Source of the DNA: a virus
Taxonomy: Duplodnaviria; Heunggongvirae; Uroviricota; Caudoviricetes
Length of the DNA: 41,240 nucleotides
Virus record (IMG/VR): IMGVR_UViG_2541047725_000010
Strand: one strand, 5' to 3'
This document shows, piece by piece, positions 2,690 to 35,611 of this stretch. Position numbers and translations under genes: made by a program. The notes beneath the pieces were generated by a model that was not told the DNA's origin, searched no databases, and worked only from the letters and a program-made list of their open reading frames with translations. The first letter of the stretch is position 1, and every line of letters begins with the position of its first letter.

Positions 2690-3092
2690 CGTCTTTTCTC
2701 CCCGGAATTAACTCGCGTGGATTATCGGAACGGTGATAGAGCCAGATACCAATTCGCACTGCGACAATTGCTGATACGAATGCGCCAGCAGAGAAAACAA
2801 TCCCTTTCTCGAACGAGTCCTGCGTGATGGTAGGGATCAGGCTGGCTATGCCGATAAGAATTGATGCTGCTGGTTTGTAAAAAAGAAGGCCGCAGAGAAA
2901 GCTGAGCATCGACAAGAATACGCGACGACGAATTGGATACTCTACCGCAGAGGTAACAAAAATTACCGCACCAGCAAGAGCACCGAGCGCCACCTCTGGC
3001 GGAACACCTACGATAACCGCAGCAAGAGAGCTCACACTAAGCCATTGATTTAAAGACTCAGTTGTTATGTTAACCGACATAGCACACACCAT
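2676..3092 (-). CDS. Holin-like membrane protein
   Basis: 138 aa, 3-4 predicted TM helices, charged C-terminal tail; first gene of the lysis cassette. Confidence 0.5.
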   Translation of the reverse strand: MVCAMSVNITTESLNQWLSVSSLAAVIVGVPPEVALGALAGAVIFVTSAVEYPIRRRVFLSMLSFLCGLLFYKPAASILIGIASLIPTITQDSFEKGIVFSAGAFVSAIVAVRIGIWLYHRSDNPRELIPGRKDDGNA

Positions 3093-3255
3093 TTTTTTTG
3101 TACATATCGAACCTCTTCACTTACAGGTCACCAAACACAATAAACCATATATGTTTAACCATCAGATATTCTGAAATAACTATCAATTCATTGGTTTTTG
3201 ATGACAATATTCATAAACAACCATAAATGTAAGGATGTTTATTAGTTGCCAAAAT

Positions 3256-5862
3256 TTATTTCCTGCAAACTCCAGATGATGTTAATCCATCAAAAATAAC
3301 CTGCACTCTGGCAATAACAACATCAACTCCAGAAGTCGTTTCACTTGCATAACCAAGTTTTATTTTAGATACAATATCCTGAGTAAGTTCAGATATTTCA
3401 GTTTCTGCAATGTTACCAGAGGCCATGTGATTATCGTATGCCATAGAATGAATTCCATTATTGACATCGATTGAACTAGTATGTTTGTGAAAAATAGATG
3501 GGTTTACCTGAAACGAATTTGAACCGATAAGATCAGAAGATACTCCATTCATCACTGCAGTACAGCGTGGAATATTATTATCGGTTATTGTCATATGCAG
3601 ACGGTTACCAGTTAACCCCTCACCAAGTGTGACATAATACGCCAATTCTCCACCTGCATATTGTTTCCCCTCAACAATAACAGTAATCCCTCTTAATTTC
3701 TGATTAGCTAGCAAAAACTTATTACTGTCTATATAGCATTTATTTGCGGAACCAAAAACAGCCCCTTCTAAAATATCTGATGAATAGGAATAAATAAGGT
3801 CACCAGAAACAAAGGAAAGAATATCAGATACGTTTCCTTTTTTAGATAAGTTGGGAGAATAGCTATTAACTATTTCATATTGTCCTGTGATAAAATCAAG
3901 GTAAACGCCATCAGTTTTCATCTCTTTAAAGAAAATGCTATTAAAGCATCCATCAAGAACCGGTGGATATATTCTAGAGCTTGCATAAGCTGTTGGGTGA
4001 TTCTTATTATTACCACTACCAGGCGAATAAACATCTTCGTTAGTCATTGACTTTTTAAGCTTAACAGGAATCATCGGCTGCATATCAATTTTGCAGTTCC
4101 CTGAACCACCGATGCGAGGATAAAATAAACCACCAAACCTTACAATATTACTACTGAATAGTATTTCGTTATCGTTAAGTGTTATCTCAACGAAGTTTCC
4201 AATAAGTTTAAATTCAACTGAAAACAAACCAAGTGGAGCAGATAATTTAACAATATTGCGCATAAAAACACCTACAGTCCCTGTTGATGCAGTATAGTGT
4301 GTGGTTTCAAAGGCAGAGCCTGTATATTTCAAGTTAATGAAATTATTATGGTATGAAGACAATTGGAATTGAATCCCAGAACTAAGGATTTCAATATCTA
4401 CAAATTGAATCCTTACGGAGTAAGAATATGATAAATCTTCATATTCATAAGGCAATGTAACATCTTTTGAAATAGTTGCCCTCACATAATTACCAGAAAC
4501 CACATCAACCCCATCACGTACTGCATTAAAGTAACGATTAAAATCAATAAGCCCAGCGCCAACATACTGCGCATATGAACGAGTCCATCCTGCCATTGCG
4601 TTTCGTCCATTCTGAGCTTCTAAACTGCTAAATTCAGAGTCACTTGTGGTACTTGATGGGAGGATATTTGTACAAAAAACAATTTCAGGCATTGAAGTAA
4701 TATCATTCAGTTCAGCCATCAATTTAAAAAAAGTTTTCTGCGGGAAGTTACCAACATCCCAACCATCTCCGTCATTCATGCCAAAAGCAATAATAACAAC
4801 ATCAGGGTTAATATCACGAATGTAATCAATCCAGCGTCTGTTCGTGTCTGAATACCATGGGTACTGTGAGTTATAAGAAGTAATTGCTGGTGTATCTTTT
4901 CCAAGGTCATAGTACCTCATTCCACCAATTGCTCTGTTAAATAAAGTAGAACTTGGGAATTTCTCTTGCAAAACTCTCTTAAGATGAGCGGCAAAAATGC
5001 TTGATCGATCCACTGTGCTTATATTATATGGGGCACTTAAGCTGTCACCAACTAACACTATTTTTGAGTTAGGCCTTGATAATCTCTCAAGTGTTTTAGA
5101 TGTGACTAAACTGCAGGAATTAATGAACTGAGTACTATTTAGCGTCTGTTCAAGTGTATCACCAAATCTGGTACCAACGTATGATGATCCGTTGACACTT
5201 GCTAGCTTAAGGCATAAATCAGCAGTATCTGTAATTGAAAAAATAGGAACAGGACGTCCTAAACTGTCATACCCCTGAATTGAGTTTGCCCTAGAAGATG
5301 CTGATGCCATTTCGCTTACTATCTCAGGGAAGCGGAGTGTTTTAGATATGTTGCTGTTAATAACTCCTTTGATAGATGAGTCTGTATATTTCTTCGTGGA
5401 AGCGTCCTGAGGAAATAATGGATCATCAAGGTTACGAATACGATTGCCGAGTGCATCGTAGTAAGTGGCACTAAATGATGGTTTACGAAGAGCCAGCCGA
5501 GCCATGCTTTTGACTAACTGGATCAGCATCGTTAGCTTATCAAAAGCATCCTCATGCACTTCCGCAAAGAACTTACCCTGATTGCGCAGATCAGTTTCCT
5601 GTGTAACCGGTAGCTCTCGTGATATAGAAATCTTATAGCCATTGGCCAACGCCTTCGACAATATTACATTTCCACCATTGTATCCTCCGGCCCCGGTAAC
5701 TATATAATCAGTATCAAGAGTCAGTACGGTGATATTTTCATGAATATCAACAACCTGCACAATCAAATCAGATTTATTGAAAACCCTAAAGGCATACGGA
5801 AACGATGTCGTAACGCCGTTACCGGTGTATTCGTTGTGGTCAACTTCGGTTGAGACCGTCAT
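3256..5862 (-). CDS. Tailspike / receptor-binding protein with internal GDSL/SGNH esterase domain
   Basis: 868 aa; conserved N-terminal anchor MTVSTEVDHNEYTGNGVTTSFPY; SGNH blocks VLVGDSLS (about 5040-5065), NRAIGG, FGMNDGDG (about 4761-4787); GGAG RBS; distal part visibly AT-richer. Confidence 0.8.
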   Translation of the reverse strand: MTVSTEVDHNEYTGNGVTTSFPYAFRVFNKSDLIVQVVDIHENITVLTLDTDYIVTGAGGYNGGNVILSKALANGYKISISRELPVTQETDLRNQGKFFAEVHEDAFDKLTMLIQLVKSMARLALRKPSFSATYYDALGNRIRNLDDPLFPQDASTKKYTDSSIKGVINSNISKTLRFPEIVSEMASASSRANSIQGYDSLGRPVPIFSITDTADLCLKLASVNGSSYVGTRFGDTLEQTLNSTQFINSCSLVTSKTLERLSRPNSKIVLVGDSLSAPYNISTVDRSSIFAAHLKRVLQEKFPSSTLFNRAIGGMRYYDLGKDTPAITSYNSQYPWYSDTNRRWIDYIRDINPDVVIIAFGMNDGDGWDVGNFPQKTFFKLMAELNDITSMPEIVFCTNILPSSTTSDSEFSSLEAQNGRNAMAGWTRSYAQYVGAGLIDFNRYFNAVRDGVDVVSGNYVRATISKDVTLPYEYEDLSYSYSVRIQFVDIEILSSGIQFQLSSYHNNFINLKYTGSAFETTHYTASTGTVGVFMRNIVKLSAPLGLFSVEFKLIGNFVEITLNDNEILFSSNIVRFGGLFYPRIGGSGNCKIDMQPMIPVKLKKSMTNEDVYSPGSGNNKNHPTAYASSRIYPPVLDGCFNSIFFKEMKTDGVYLDFITGQYEIVNSYSPNLSKKGNVSDILSFVSGDLIYSYSSDILEGAVFGSANKCYIDSNKFLLANQKLRGITVIVEGKQYAGGELAYYVTLGEGLTGNRLHMTITDNNIPRCTAVMNGVSSDLIGSNSFQVNPSIFHKHTSSIDVNNGIHSMAYDNHMASGNIAETEISELTQDIVSKIKLGYASETTSGVDVVIARVQVIFDGLTSSGVCRK

Positions 5863-5965
5863 GTTAAATCTCCAGATAGTCGCAGCACCCGTTGCGCCGC
5901 ATATCTGGTTATTCTATTACCTGAAAAACCATATATGTATAGAAAGACTATAAATACCAATAGAT

Positions 5966-5982
5966 ATTACCTTTATGGTAAT
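5966..5982. promoter_or_regulatory. Operator-like palindrome ATTACC-TTTAT-GGTAAT
   Basis: Perfect inverted half-sites 5 bp apart; one of at least 11 copies of the same motif in intergenic regions. Confidence 0.5.
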
Positions 5983-6018
5983 TTGCAAAACGTGCTGGAT
6001 AGCAAACAAATTATTTGA

Positions 6019-6038
6019 TACTGTATAAATATACAGTT
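6019..6038 (+). promoter_or_regulatory. LexA (SOS) box overlapping the -10 region upstream of gene 6058-6315
   Basis: TACTGTATAAATATACAGTT: CTGT-N8-ACAG, 18/20 to the TACTGTATATATATACAGTA consensus; 20 bp before the GGAG RBS and ATG at 6058. Confidence 0.7.
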
Positions 6039-6057
6039 ATTGCATGGAGAAGATAAG

Positions 6058-6315
6058 ATGCAGCGGTATCACTATCCACTGGAAGACGGATTTACCGAAA
6101 GGATTCACACGCCGGGAGGCGTCAGGTCACTGGTGGAGGGATCGCACTTGATGAAATTACTCCGGGATCTCGATAAGGATGGATTTAATGTCGATGGCCC
6201 ACTTGCCGAACTGACTGCACTGATTAACTACGTCACCAGCTCACAGATGTCTATGCGGGATCTGCAAACACATCTCGACTATTGTGCCGAACAATTACGA
6301 AAACAAACCAGATAA
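6058..6315 (+). CDS. Small protein paralogous to the antirepressor C-terminal domain (SOS-controlled)
   Basis: 85 aa from ATG 6058 (track ORF 6040-6315); aligns by eye at about 50% identity with residues about 160-240 of the adjacent antirepressor (e.g. LMKLLRDLDKDGFNVDGPLAELT vs LMNLLNQLQEDGHDVSGAAAELT). Confidence 0.6.
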   Translation: MQRYHYPLEDGFTERIHTPGGVRSLVEGSHLMKLLRDLDKDGFNVDGPLAELTALINYVTSSQMSMRDLQTHLDYCAEQLRKQTR

Positions 6316-6345
6316 GGTTTGCAATTACCAAGTGGAGTGCTTATA

Positions 6346-6362
6346 TTTACCTTTGAGGTAAA
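6346..6362. promoter_or_regulatory. Operator-like palindrome TTTACC-TTTGA-GGTAAA
   Basis: Same motif family as 5966-5982. Confidence 0.45.
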
Positions 6363-6455
6363 TTTACATCGCACTCCTCTTGTGCCATAGTAATCGGGCA
6401 CTGGCAAAATCCGGTGCCGGGATTGGTCTCCCGGATTACTACAGAGGCACATATG

Positions 6456-6475
6456 CCGCATAAGCGGTTTTTTTT
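6456..6475 (+). terminator. Putative intrinsic terminator after the LexA-controlled small gene
   Basis: Short GC stem CCGC-ataa-GCGG followed by an 8-T run; sits inside a 314-bp hairpin-rich noncoding gap. Confidence 0.4.
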
Positions 6476-6629
6476 ATGTGTAAAGCGCACCTATTCTATG
6501 GTGGGCTGTGTGGGGGCACCGAAAGGTGCGCCGGGTTCCTTTGTAGCCGGTAAGACCAACTCTGCACAGTTCACCACCATCTGATTGGTCTCAGCGGTGG
6601 TGATTAACCTAACTACAAAGGTGATCGCC

Positions 6630-7322
6630 ATGAATACCAAACCTTCCATCTTTTCCTTTGAGTCATCCTGCCAGATCCGTATGTTCATGATTGACGGAGA
6701 ACCTTGGTTTGTCACCAAAGATGTGTGCAATGCTTTGAATATTGATGTTACACAAGCGAGAAAACTTGATAAAAAAGGCTGGAACAAAAAGGGGCTGTAT
6801 TCAATACAGACCCCTGGTGGAATACAAGAACTATCCATCGTTTCAGAATCAGGTCTCTACATCCTTATTCTGCGTTGCAAAGAGGCAATGACTGAGGGAA
6901 CGAGAGCATTCAGATTTCTTGAATGGGTTACAGGCGAGGTTCTTCCTCAGATCCGCCGCACCGGAAGTTACATTAAAAACTCGCTACCGCAGGAAGAACG
7001 CATAAAGATGGTTGCCGACCAGGTAGCCAACGCCACGGCGTCAGCAGTAATGCAGGCGATGAAGATAGAGAACAAAACCTACAACGCCCCGCTGAAGCCC
7101 GGCTACCGCAGCCTGATTCATTCCCCGTCTGGTGTTCTCGGCCTGACGGAGAACTCACTGCTGATGAATCTGCTGAACCAGTTACAGGAAGACGGGCACG
7201 ACGTATCGGGCGCGGCGGCGGAGCTGACCACCATGTTCTGCTACATCGTCGGTGTGAGCAAATGCCTGCGTGATATCCAGACGCACGCGGAGTACATCAA
7301 CGACAAAGCAGGGTTCTTCTGA
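6630..7322 (+). CDS. Phage antirepressor, BRO-N N-terminal domain with KilA-C/Ant-type C-terminal domain
   Basis: 230 aa from ATG 6630 (AAGGTG RBS); N-terminal FSFESSCQIRMFMIDGEPWFVTKDVCNALNI is a BRO-N signature (from memory). Confidence 0.75.
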   Translation: MNTKPSIFSFESSCQIRMFMIDGEPWFVTKDVCNALNIDVTQARKLDKKGWNKKGLYSIQTPGGIQELSIVSESGLYILILRCKEAMTEGTRAFRFLEWVTGEVLPQIRRTGSYIKNSLPQEERIKMVADQVANATASAVMQAMKIENKTYNAPLKPGYRSLIHSPSGVLGLTENSLLMNLLNQLQEDGHDVSGAAAELTTMFCYIVGVSKCLRDIQTHAEYINDKAGFF

Positions 7323-7393
7323 CGGGCGGCGGCACAGGGATGTGCCTTTAAATAATTCTGTACAGATTGCAGACTGGGGGTGAATAGCGTACT

Positions 7394-7410
7394 ATTACCT
7401 TAAAGGTAAA
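7394..7410. promoter_or_regulatory. Operator-like palindrome ATTACC-TTAAA-GGTAAA
   Basis: 41 bp upstream of the ATG at 7452. Confidence 0.45.
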
Positions 7411-7451
7411 CCTGTTTTTATTTTATACCTGTAACTTACCGGAGATTAAAG

Positions 7452-7778
7452 ATGACAAAACTTGGATTCGTGATGAGAGGTCCGGTAAGAAGCGGAACTC
7501 ATGCAAAGCGTAGCAAGAGTCGTATTTTTACTGGTAAGGTTGTAGCACGTAAATCAGCTATTGGCTCGTTCAATAGTGAAAATGCGGCATTGCGCCATAT
7601 TTTTATCAGCACAAAGCCAAGAGCATCCGCTGATGTGCATACAATGACTATTCCTATCACAAAGAATATAAAGCGGATAAAAAAGCTCTCATCTGCAGAA
7701 TCAAAAGAGATATCTTTCCGCCAGCTTAACTCATTAGAAACGCATATGAAGGAAGAGGAATTCGATGTTTTTGAGTGA
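7452..7778 (+). CDS. Basic hypothetical protein, upstream partner of a toxin-like gene
   Basis: 108 aa; strong GGAG RBS; Lys/Arg-rich N-terminus; no family recognised; 14-bp overlap with the next gene. Confidence 0.5.
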   Translation: MTKLGFVMRGPVRSGTHAKRSKSRIFTGKVVARKSAIGSFNSENAALRHIFISTKPRASADVHTMTIPITKNIKRIKKLSSAESKEISFRQLNSLETHMKEEEFDVFE

Positions 7779-8277
7779 GTATAGCGGGAAGGTTATACCT
7801 ACTGGTGAGTTTAAAACTGATGACTTTCTGATTTCGCTAAAAGATGCTTTTAAACAACACTGGCGTCATGGTCATCATCCTGATCTGGGAAAAGATACTC
7901 TTTTTGAAAGACCAGACGAAGTATTAGGTTTCCATCTCAGAAAGGTTCATGTCAATATTGGTGAATATGCATCATATTCATACTCATGTACTGAACAGTG
8001 TTGGGATGAGTGGTCATATGGATTGATTGATGAACAAGGAAATTACAGGCCAAAACCAACCAGTAACGCATATCTCATATATGCAGTCAATGAAATAAGA
8101 GATGCAGCCTTACTAGCTTATTGGGACCCGCCCGCACACACCAAAGCTAACGCAAAAGTTTGGATGGATTCCGTATTGAATTTCACAAAATTATTTCATG
8201 AACGAACGAATACAGCTCCACTTAGTAGAAATGTTTATCCGTGGGATTATTCGTACAAATCCAAAAAGCCTGCATAG
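7765..8277 (+). CDS. YafO-like toxin-family protein (putative ribosome-dependent mRNA interferase)
   Basis: 170 aa; AAGGAAGAGG RBS inside the upstream gene; by-eye similarity to E. coli YafO recalled from memory (G[KR]D-x-L[FY], RKVHVNI vs ERVAHIHL, AYLIYAV vs AHLVYCQ); unverified. Confidence 0.45.
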   Translation: MFLSEYSGKVIPTGEFKTDDFLISLKDAFKQHWRHGHHPDLGKDTLFERPDEVLGFHLRKVHVNIGEYASYSYSCTEQCWDEWSYGLIDEQGNYRPKPTSNAYLIYAVNEIRDAALLAYWDPPAHTKANAKVWMDSVLNFTKLFHERTNTAPLSRNVYPWDYSYKSKKPA

Positions 8278-25449: not shown

Positions 25450-25526
25450 GTGGCATTAGCTCAGTTGGACAGAGCAACCGCCTTCTAAGCGGTTGGTCGC
25501 AGGTTCGAATCCTGCATGCCACGCCA
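25450..25526 (+). tRNA. tRNA-Arg, anticodon UCU (phage-encoded)
   Basis: Hand-folded cloverleaf: 7-bp acceptor GTGGCAT/ATGCCAC, D-stem GCTC/GAGC, anticodon stem ACCGC/GCGGT with loop CTTCTAA, T-stem GCAGG/CCTGC with GGTTCGAATCC, discriminator G and encoded CCA. Confidence 0.85.
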
Positions 25527-35026: not shown

Positions 35027-35611
35027 ATGAAAAGTATCCAGGACGTCCGCAGGCAAAATCTCAACGACTTGATCGACCGTGAATTCAATGGTGTTCAGAC
35101 GCGGATGGCAGAAAAACTTGGAACTCAGGCAAATCTGGTAAACCGCTGGGCTCTTGGCAAGAAGGTTATCGGCGACCAGGTTGCGCGAAAAATTGAAGCT
35201 GCCGCCAATAAACCCCGTAACTGGCTTGATATCGATCGCTCGCTTTCTCAGGAAGGTTTTCAGCCTGTCGGCCCAAGCGACATTGGTCAGCTGGCGGCTC
35301 ACAACCTGGAACGCTGGATGAGCGAAAGCCGCGACCTTTCAACACAGGGAAAACTTCACCGCGCATCCGGCGTCGCCCAGGTGACAATCAGCCGCCTGTT
35401 AAACAATGAGGTCAGCGTTTCCATTTCCACCCTGGAGAATGTTGCATCCGCATTCGGGCGTCACGGCTATGAATTACTGATTCACCCGCACGACCCTGCG
35501 ACCATCAACTATGACCGCTCGCGCTACGCATTGTTACCCGAAACCGAGAAAGCAAAGATCGAAAGTTACATTGAATTTGTCATCAACCAGAACGAAAAAA
35601 ACAAACAATAA
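35027..35611 (+). CDS. Repressor-like regulator with two HTH domains, no recognisable S24 peptidase domain
   Basis: 194 aa; two HTH-like segments (GVQTRMAEKLGTQANLVNRW and ASGVAQVTISRLLNNEVSVS); divergent from the cro-like gene. Confidence 0.6.
   Translation: MKSIQDVRRQNLNDLIDREFNGVQTRMAEKLGTQANLVNRWALGKKVIGDQVARKIEAAANKPRNWLDIDRSLSQEGFQPVGPSDIGQLAAHNLERWMSESRDLSTQGKLHRASGVAQVTISRLLNNEVSVSISTLENVASAFGRHGYELLIHPHDPATINYDRSRYALLPETEKAKIESYIEFVINQNEKNKQ

Follow-up and report, generated by a model that had tools for sequence, protein, structure and literature searches.

Lysogeny of phage P1 requires that its antirepressor gene, ant, be shut off, and full repression of ant needs the antisense RNA C4, according to the part of PMC8198154 that cites Citron and Schuster 1990. 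C4 pairs around the ribosome-binding site and underlies the heteroimmunity of P1 and P7 (PMC12197685), and the C4 precursor of both phages is a substrate of RNase P, going by the title of Hartmann 1995 as cited in PMC4919922. The c4 and c4-a1b1 RNAs were described in 2010 as widespread motifs in Proteobacteria and phages (PMC2864571), and a pair of c4 and isrK RNAs before a BRO-N gene has been noted in APSE phages (PMC7313666). In Gifsy-1 of Salmonella, the isrK terminator is partially read through, the resulting long RNA is translationally silent, and short IsrK activates the antirepressor gene anrP 139-fold in trans; a stable processed RNA, STnc1160, is found downstream of IsrK (PMC4825925). 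In lysogens, IsrK and STnc1160 both reach high levels of expression (PMC7067206). P1 c4, RNase P and immI go unmentioned in the Gifsy-1 paper (PMC4825925), a 2025 review lists IsrK and c4 RNAs separately (PMC12197685), and Rfam holds the two as separate, unlinked families. Here we examine a 314-bp gap at positions 6316-6629 of a 41,240-nt stretch of phage DNA (IMG/VR record IMGVR_UViG_2541047725_000010; hereafter the window). The gap is flanked upstream by an 85-codon gene (6058-6315) and downstream by a Bro-N antirepressor gene, ant, which begins at 6630.

Very probably, the gap contains a complete P1-type RNA module of the immI kind, joined to the antirepressor gene of a prophage like phiV10 and epsilon15 and working as proposed below. 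The module is a new instance in a described family, extending known biology rather than introducing a new principle. Its identification draws on family matches, on fold and covariation, and on four complementarities together with their co-variation. A search of positions 5800-7500 against Rfam, on both strands, returned two full-length matches above the curated thresholds, both on the plus strand. One is isrK (RF01394) at 6398-6474, which scores 73.7 bits against a threshold of 50 and covers model positions 1-77. The other is the C4 antisense RNA (RF01695) at 6494-6581, which scores 78.6 bits against a threshold of 45 and is full length (model positions 1-87). By analogy with the homologues, the most likely function is that processed C4 represses translation of ant and the IsrK-like RNA relieves this repression, with two short elements of C4, a' and b', setting the immunity specificity. 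The initial annotation had suggested an RNA layer controlling ant, and the RF01695 and RF01394 matches, the complementarity of the C4 loop to the ant ribosome-binding region and the covariation in relatives support that suggestion. Its comparison with the small antisense or processed RNAs of other phages holds insofar as the RNA is encoded on the same strand and is P1-type, with processing and the capacity to act in trans expected by homology, but not in the sense of a P22 sar-like RNA, and the family itself had gone unrecognised.

The fold of the C4 RNA gene (6494-6581, plus strand) has a closing stem of 17 bp, five of them G-U, which encloses a GNRA-capped hairpin at 6516-6529 and a second hairpin whose 12-nt loop holds b'. 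The unpaired junction between this second hairpin and the closing stem holds a'. The minimum free energy (MFE) fold of the segment is identical to the family fold. Mature C4 is predicted, by homology with P1, to span about 6500-6578 (approximately 79 nt), and the conserved ends UAU|GGUGGG and CCACC are present. Fold significance was judged against 200 dinucleotide-preserving shuffles per segment. The predicted read-through RNA (6398-6640) reaches -99.7 kcal/mol (z -4.96) and the C4 segment -43.6 kcal/mol (z -4.48), with none of the 200 shuffles as good in either case, bearing out the dense structure potential remarked on in the initial annotation. The ant leader also folds better than most shuffles (z -3.24, 1/200 as good), while the IsrK-like segment alone gives a weaker signal (z -2.15, 7/200 as good). 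On the opposite strand the C4 segment reaches -32 kcal/mol (z -2.1), and this poorer fold is consistent with the five G-U pairs of the plus-strand closing stem.

Relatives of the module were gathered by a distant DNA search, which gave 225 phage records including Stx-converting, APSE, Yersinia, Hafnia, Klebsiella and Salmonella phages. The tandem of isrK and C4 is present in all 12 relative loci fetched, and also in Gifsy-1. A pattern scan of viral contigs added 80 further loci, and a covariance model built from 12 sequences then retrieved 75 C4 copies; the window C4 scores 100.1 bits against this custom model. The stems are conserved. Across 53 distinct sequences, in an alignment fitted to the covariance model, 99.7% of cells are paired and 17 of the 27 C4 pairs have changed on both sides. 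None of 500 shuffles reaches the observed level, and alignments slid out of register are 35-49% paired. RNAalifold, run on an independent plain MAFFT alignment, recovers the same C4 fold with 11 of the 27 pairs compensated.

Both C4 elements have complements on either side of the RNA. The b' element, CCUUUGUAG (6538-6546), is complementary to b1 and b2, and a', AGACCAA (6553-6559), to a1 and a2; the a pairings are 7 bp long and the b pairings 9 bp. Upstream, within the IsrK-like RNA, a1 (TTGGTCT, 6423-6429) occupies the loop of the second hairpin, and b1 (CTACAGAGG, 6439-6447) pairs with b' with one G-U. Downstream, a2 (TTGGTCT, 6585-6591) begins 4 nt past the C4 match, and b2 (CTACAAAGG, 6613-6621) overlaps the Shine-Dalgarno sequence of ant, AAGGTGA (6618-6624). 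All of these elements lie on the plus strand, and the first 14 loci examined all share their order, as does Gifsy-1.

The recognition elements are also the most variable parts of C4, with 39 variants of the b' loop and 16 of the a' junction forming 48 combinations. In nearly every locus the complements of a' and b' nevertheless occur at fixed offsets, about -76 and -61 upstream and about +5 and +32 to +38 downstream. In 40 of 48 own loci all four pairings are 7 bp or longer, compared with 25 of 1946 mismatched combinations of C4 and flank. Pairing of at least 7 bp between a2 and a' is found in all 48 specificity types, and the b2 match in 94% of them. Between the window and phiV10, identity across the gap is about 83%, and the differences fall mainly in a', b' and their targets. 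The duplexes of isolated elements are roughly twice as stable for the cognate C4 (-12.0 and -8.9 kcal/mol) as for phiV10 C4 on the window targets (-5.4 and -6.6 kcal/mol). The window and phage EC.W1-9 share the c4 type AGACCAA/CCUUUGUAG, and phiV10 and TL-2011b the type ACGCCAA/CCUUUUAG. The repressor is nevertheless 100% identical in the window (35027-35611), phiV10 (compared at 3036-3260 of locus L001), ZX5 and EC.W1-9. Heteroimmunity through immI alone is therefore predicted, as in P1 and P7.

The IsrK-like short RNA (6398-6475, plus strand; RF01394) comprises hairpins at 6398-6417 and 6418-6433, a single-stranded stretch and a terminator, and carries a1 and b1. The terminator, found by a terminator scan at 6455-6475 on the plus strand, consists of the hairpin GCCGC-AUAA-GCGGU followed by eight U residues. 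It is probably leaky, given its short stem. Of 60 distinct related loci, 57 have a hairpin followed by at least five consecutive T residues between a1/b1 and C4. No match to isrJ was found by Rfam within 5800-7500, and antQ is not present upstream, where the genes for a tail spike and the LexA-controlled product sit instead.

A promoter-like site at 6363-6391 on the plus strand was identified by a promoter scan. It has a -35 hexamer TTTACA (6363-6368), a 17-nt spacer and an extended -10 element TGc-CATAGT (6383-6391), and lies 7 nt upstream of where the IsrK model begins. Transcription would start near G6398, a placement chosen because the first position of the Rfam isrK model falls there. The promoter is conserved in the window, phiV10, EC.W1-9, TL-2011b, Tyrion and Klebsiella phi13.3, and in alignment it corresponds to the Gifsy-1 isrK promoter (TTGACA/TATATT). 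Promoter-like matches as such are not enriched in the region (4 found against 3.3 expected by chance). A second such site, TTGCAA-17-TATATT at 6319-6347, was not counted as part of the module, being conserved only in the window and phiV10, where no insertion follows the SOS gene region, which lacks a Shine-Dalgarno sequence.

Abutting the -35 hexamer is a candidate operator, the palindrome ATTTACC-TTTGA-GGTAAAT (6345-6363). Its core, TTACC-N5-GGTAA, occurs in 11 exact copies in the window, all of them intergenic (at 5967, 6347, 7395, 25113, 25727, 28804, 32564, 32626, 34957, 35669 and 35731), compared with an expectation of 0.54 for a looser pattern. Two pairs of copies have a spacing of 62 bp, and the gene for the repressor, a 194-aa helix-turn-helix protein, has copies on either side. 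The palindrome is found at -51 (-48 in phiV10) relative to the IsrK-like start in 6/6 Uetakevirus-type loci and is absent from other lineages. Both palindrome and promoter are kept in EC.W1-9 and TL-2011b despite an upstream insertion of 1-1.4 kb. The eleven palindromes probably serve as operators for the prophage repressor, scattered across the genome in a manner somewhat resembling the C1 operators of P1, and we infer that the promoter of the module is itself under repressor control, as at Op51/P51a of P1. An operator of the form ATTACC...GGTAAT may also exist in epsilon15. In ZX5, overexpression of the repressor abolished free phage and cut transcription of the endolysin and holin genes by more than 99.9% (PMC9782041).

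Every motif picked out in the initial annotation lies where it was placed, and several can now be assigned. CCGC-ATAA-GCGG (6456-6467) with its T8 tract (6468-6475) is the IsrK terminator, and GCACC-GAAA-GGTGC (6516-6529) is the first inner hairpin of C4. Of the motifs GTGCC (6382-6386 and 6414-6418) and GGCAC (6397-6401), the GGCAC...GTGCC stem is the first IsrK hairpin and stands as RNA structure. The other pairing, from GTGCC at 6382, and the 5' arm of the stem formed by GTAATCGGG (6390-6398) with CCCGGATTAC (6430-6439) fall in the predicted -10 and start region, and these two stems are probably promoter DNA rather than main RNA. What had been described as a leader of about 150 nt before ant is instead an 88-nt C4 RNA gene followed by a 49-nt leader.

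We propose that transcription would start near 6398 from the repressor-gated promoter (6363-6391) with its operator (6345-6363). Most transcripts would end at the leaky terminator (6455-6475), yielding an IsrK-like RNA of about 77 nt that displays a1 and b1 as mimic sites, and those reading through would carry C4 (6494-6581) and the ant leader. C4 would then be excised from this precursor, as it is in P1 by RNase P at UAU|GGUGGG, to give a stable RNA of about 79 nt. Its b' loop and a' junction would pair with b2 and a2, covering the ant Shine-Dalgarno sequence and blocking translation. This block would act in cis, and in trans on an incoming phage of the same a'/b' type, thereby protecting lysogeny. 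Finally, the IsrK-like RNA would compete for a' and b' through a1 and b1 and so relieve the repression. Processing, read-through and the direction of control are borrowed in this scheme from P1/P7 and Gifsy-1; from the sequence we infer the transcription start, the occupancy of the operator and the decoy role of a1/b1.

The target of this control, ant (6630-7322, plus strand), encodes a 230-aa Bro-N antirepressor (Pfam Bro-N, E-value 1.6e-13) whose homologues are annotated as anti-repressors. Overexpression of the anti-repressor of the Uetakevirus ZX5 (ORF4) lowered prophage numbers approximately 1000-fold (PMC9782041). The AUG of ant at 6630 is 8 nt past b2, and no open reading frame (ORF) intervenes, so the window has no icd-like ORF. 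Likewise, a long ORF begins just past b2 in 53 of 56 related leaders, usually 8-9 nt from the 3' end of b2. Between a2 and b2 lies a possible switch element, GGUGGUGA (6596-6603, plus strand), which in MFE folds pairs either with the 3' strand of C4, UCACCACC, or with AUCGCCAU. The MFE folds with the GGUGGUGA:UCACCACC pairing form a hairpin presenting a2; in that of the isolated leader, GGUGGUGA pairs with AUCGCCAU and buries both the Shine-Dalgarno sequence and the AUG of ant. Of 51 distinct loci, 47 could form a pairing of the GGUGGUGA type with the C4 3' strand over at least 7 bp, and locus L051 provides a fully compensated case (GCTATCGC/GCGATAGC).

The strongest competing account is purely positive control in the manner of Gifsy-1. 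In this account a1/b1 would pair in cis with a'/b' and lock the long RNA in an inactive fold, which the short IsrK-like RNA would open in trans, and the C4 region would be a structural or coding part of the mRNA and no trans-acting repressor. The Gifsy-1 experiments fit such a scheme (PMC4825925), and the MFE fold of the window read-through RNA does pair a1/b1 with a'/b' in cis, like 'structure A' of Gifsy-1. The scheme has no need, however, for a2 and b2 to match a' and b', yet a2 does so in 48/48 types and b2 in 94%, with covariation. Nor is the 'orf45' frame conserved, ranging from 3 to 416 codons in relatives; here it has 28 codons, and its stop (6582-6584) lies 45 nt before the ant AUG and therefore allows no translational coupling. 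In addition, P1 C4 acts in trans (PMC8198154, PMC12197685), and STnc1160 accumulates as a separate stable RNA (PMC4825925, PMC7067206). We consider purely positive control unlikely. Much less likely again is a plain cis-acting leader or attenuator, with the hairpin and T8 tract stopping transcription from upstream, for example from the LexA-controlled gene, the other hairpins stabilising ant mRNA, and no RNA acting in trans. A terminator-like site does exist, and no terminator separates the stop of the SOS-controlled gene at 6315 from 6398, making read-in possible. But such an attenuator would leave unexplained the full-length matches to two RNA families, as well as the covariation and three-way complementarity, and even where opposite-strand genes of about 1 kb separate the module from the SOS-controlled gene, its promoter and operator are retained.

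Two further explanations are extremely improbable. A cis-antisense RNA crossing the ant start from the minus strand, like P22 sar, could look to one weak promoter-like match at 6715-6687 (9 of 12 positions), but such matches occur at chance level in the region. The Rfam search of 5800-7500 gave no minus-strand match, a terminator scan of the gap found none on that strand, the minus strand of the C4 segment folds far worse than the plus strand, and the G-U pairs of the stem are compatible with the plus strand only. It is scarcely more credible that the gap codes for small proteins, either a 56-codon ORF (6414-6584) or the 28-codon frame from AUG 6498. Both ORFs are present, and Gifsy-1 orf45, which begins at the same conserved AUG, affected reporter output when mutated (PMC4825925). 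Neither, however, has a Shine-Dalgarno sequence before its start codon. The frame from the conserved AUG stops inside C4 in 13 of 53 relatives and in many others reads in frame into the downstream gene, indels in the C4 loops are not multiples of three, and substitutions preserve base pairs rather than codons. A conserved orf45-type peptide was accordingly rejected as a candidate, its frame running from 3 to 416 codons across relatives. The ORF list for the gap holds only frames of 25-56 codons overlapping the RNA structures, none of them credible, as the initial annotation had concluded. A scan of the gap for tRNA and transfer-messenger RNA genes likewise found none.

Several observations weigh against a P1-type module in its simple form. 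The decoy step assigned to a1/b1 is uncertain: in Gifsy-1, cis mutations in a1 derepress anrP from 4 to 93 and 218 units, which a pure decoy would not predict (PMC4825925). The match to c4-a1b1 (RF03163, 6385-6437), at 37.8 bits, is below the threshold of 46.7 and overlaps the isrK match. RNAcofold returned a change in free energy (ddG) of 0 for C4 combined with either the leader or the IsrK-like RNA, in a pseudoknot-free model that cannot represent loop-loop contacts; because cofolding cannot model kissing complexes, the duplex energies of isolated elements were used instead. P1 has the icd ORF between b2 and ant, with the Shine-Dalgarno sequence of icd following b2 and icd translation as the direct target, whereas the window has none and b2 lies on the Shine-Dalgarno sequence of ant itself, although icd is a peculiarity of P1 rather than family-wide, given that 53/56 leaders run straight into a long ORF. 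Lastly, the conserved alternative pairing predicted for the 3' strand of C4, taken with the a1 effect in Gifsy-1 and the buried start of ant in the isolated leader, suggests a switch in the folding or processing of the precursor that goes beyond the simple model.

The window as a whole is a phiV10/epsilon15-like (Uetakevirus) prophage, its phage type being a chromosome-integrating podovirus. Positions 5860-7400 are 91-98% identical to phages EC.W1-9, TL-2011b, ZX5 and phiV10, many E. coli chromosomes match 325 bases around the gap at 100% identity, and 465 of 5426 complete genomes of this species contain similar sequence. The 85-codon gene upstream of the gap (6058-6315) is preceded by a perfect LexA box (6019-6037). 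Its product is 43% identical over 74 residues (E-value 8e-17) to the C-terminal part of Ant (residues 149-222; window 7074-7295), so that the phage, judging from this similarity, carries an SOS-controlled stand-alone copy of the Ant C-domain beside an RNA-controlled full-length Ant. In EC.W1-9 (L002 1980-2895) and TL-2011b (L003 667-1755), 1-1.4 kb with opposite-strand genes lies between the LexA-controlled gene and the operator and promoter of the module. The insertion makes the LexA-controlled gene and the RNA module separable units, and it weakens any need for the LexA promoter to feed the module.

Divergent from the LexA-controlled gene is the gene for an 868-aa tail spike (3256-5862, minus strand), which has an epsilon15-like N-terminus, is annotated as an SGNH/GDSL hydrolase and is possibly an O-antigen deacetylase. 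Downstream of ant, in the region 7395-8277, a gene of 108 codons (7452-7778), which has an operator copy of its own at 7395, is overlapped by a 170-codon gene. The latter has a weak, below-threshold match to the YafO toxin (E-value 9.5e-4) and is labelled a YafO family toxin in RefSeq, and the pair may be a toxin-antitoxin moron. The sole tRNA gene found, tRNA-Arg (anticodon TCT), lies inside the prophage at 25450-25526 with operator copies on either side (25113 and 25727).

The loci of relatives provided some further observations on the RNA families. Tandem cassettes with a period of 656-659 bp occur in L058 (9709-11108, minus strand, three copies) and also in L038, L039 and L051. Each cassette contains an IsrK-like RNA, a C4 RNA whose a'/b' type differs from the others and a gene for a product of about 120 aa, and on sequence grounds the cassettes look to be arrays of independently addressed RNA-controlled genes. 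Deposited coding sequences (CDSs) labelled Ash, Rha, antirepressor or 'transcriptional regulator' cross the IsrK and C4 RNAs in L005 (1288-1971), L010 (1132-2280), L011 (1138-2280) and L012 (1438-2097). The true starts probably lie further downstream than annotated, since a frame beginning at the conserved AUG in the C4 stem often continues, open, into the downstream gene. Yersinia phage vB_YpM_41 (L007 163-461, minus strand) carries a full-length match to ryfA (134.6 bits) near its IsrK/C4 module. At the gap itself, neither RefSeq nor the phage records fetched annotate an RNA, so the present assignments correct the annotation both for these RNAs and for the several deposited CDSs that cross them.

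Were the proposed module confirmed, it would account for how a widespread E. coli prophage silences its Bro-N antirepressor. The module also predicts which related phages can induce or superinfect one another despite an identical repressor. It is quite possible, if not quite probable, that the IsrK family is the a1/b1 arm of the P1 c4 system and that Salmonella STnc1160/'orf45' is C4. In that case the usual enterobacterial module would be a three-part, RNA-only switch, made up of the decoy transcript, the leaky terminator, and the antisense RNA processed from the precursor together with its target. Ant synthesis would then depend on how many transcripts terminate relative to those that read through. 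Immunity would be encoded combinatorially by a' and b' (at least 16 by 39 seen), independently of the protein repressor, and Uetakeviruses that share an identical repressor would be heteroimmune through c4, like P1 and P7. These identities would be a modestly new point, and the link between P1 c4 and Salmonella IsrK/STnc1160 yields testable predictions for both systems.

Among known systems, immI sar of P22 is likewise a small RNA limiting ant in a temperate enterobacterial phage, the role proposed for the window RNA, but sar lies on the opposite strand and overlaps its target, whereas the window RNA is encoded on the same strand and would act through short loop complementarity. The CI RNA of satellite P4, with seqA and seqC, is, like the C4 proposed here, a processed same-strand antisense RNA with complementary sites both up- and downstream. 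Its outcome is premature transcription termination of the replication operon rather than occlusion of an antirepressor Shine-Dalgarno sequence. The Gifsy-1 authors cite P4 CI RNA as a structural analogue of IsrK (PMC4825925). In the APSE phages of Hamiltonella, the c4 and isrK families precede a Bro-N/Ant gene and a'/b' match both flanks, as in the window (PMC7313666); these phages belong to another lineage, have another specificity, and their module has been described by annotation only.

Taken as a whole, the module is closest to isrK-orf45(STnc1160)-anrP of Gifsy-1. There IsrK has its own promoter and leaky terminator, like those predicted in the window, and is followed, as in the window, by C4, a2 and a b2 on the antirepressor Shine-Dalgarno sequence. 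Gifsy-1 'orf45'/STnc1160 scores 69 bits as C4 (L134 34131-34316, minus strand). The pairing of a1 with a' has been proven there by compensatory mutations, G28-C162 and G31-C159 (PMC4825925), and with the numbering anchored at A107 as the orf45 AUG these published pairs map exactly onto a1:a'. The up-mutations G28A and G31A published for Gifsy-1 lie within a1, and C159U and C162U within a'. The two loci differ in that orf45 of Gifsy-1 has 45 codons and overlaps the anrP start (ATGA), whereas the window frame has 28 codons and ends 45 nt upstream of ant. Gifsy-1 also has antQ upstream and isrJ downstream, neither of which flanks the module here, and the a'/b' specificities differ.

Several differences set the window apart from P1. 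The window phage is a chromosome-integrating podovirus and P1 a plasmid prophage; the window operator is the symmetric TTACC-N5-GGTAA palindrome while that of P1 C1 is asymmetric; and the window Ant is a single Bro-N protein where P1 has Ant1/Ant2. Between a1/b1 and C4, the window has a clear terminator and P1 only a weak, long-looped one, and the isrK score of P1, 35 bits, is below threshold. A terminator after a1/b1 is the rule in the family (57/60 loci), with P1 the exception. The architecture of immI c4 in P1 and P7 is nonetheless that of the window. In the same strand order, a repressor-controlled promoter is followed by a1, b1, C4 (b' then a'), a2, b2 on the ribosome-binding site and the antirepressor gene, with control of the promoter being, for the window, a prediction. 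The two systems share the fold of C4 and pairings of 7 bp for a and 8-9 bp for b, and in both specificity resides in a'/b'. The spacings are likewise similar, with 16 nt between a1 and b1 in the window and 14 in P1, and 28 nt between a2 and b2 compared with 29. As in P1 and P7, close relatives share one repressor but differ in c4 type.

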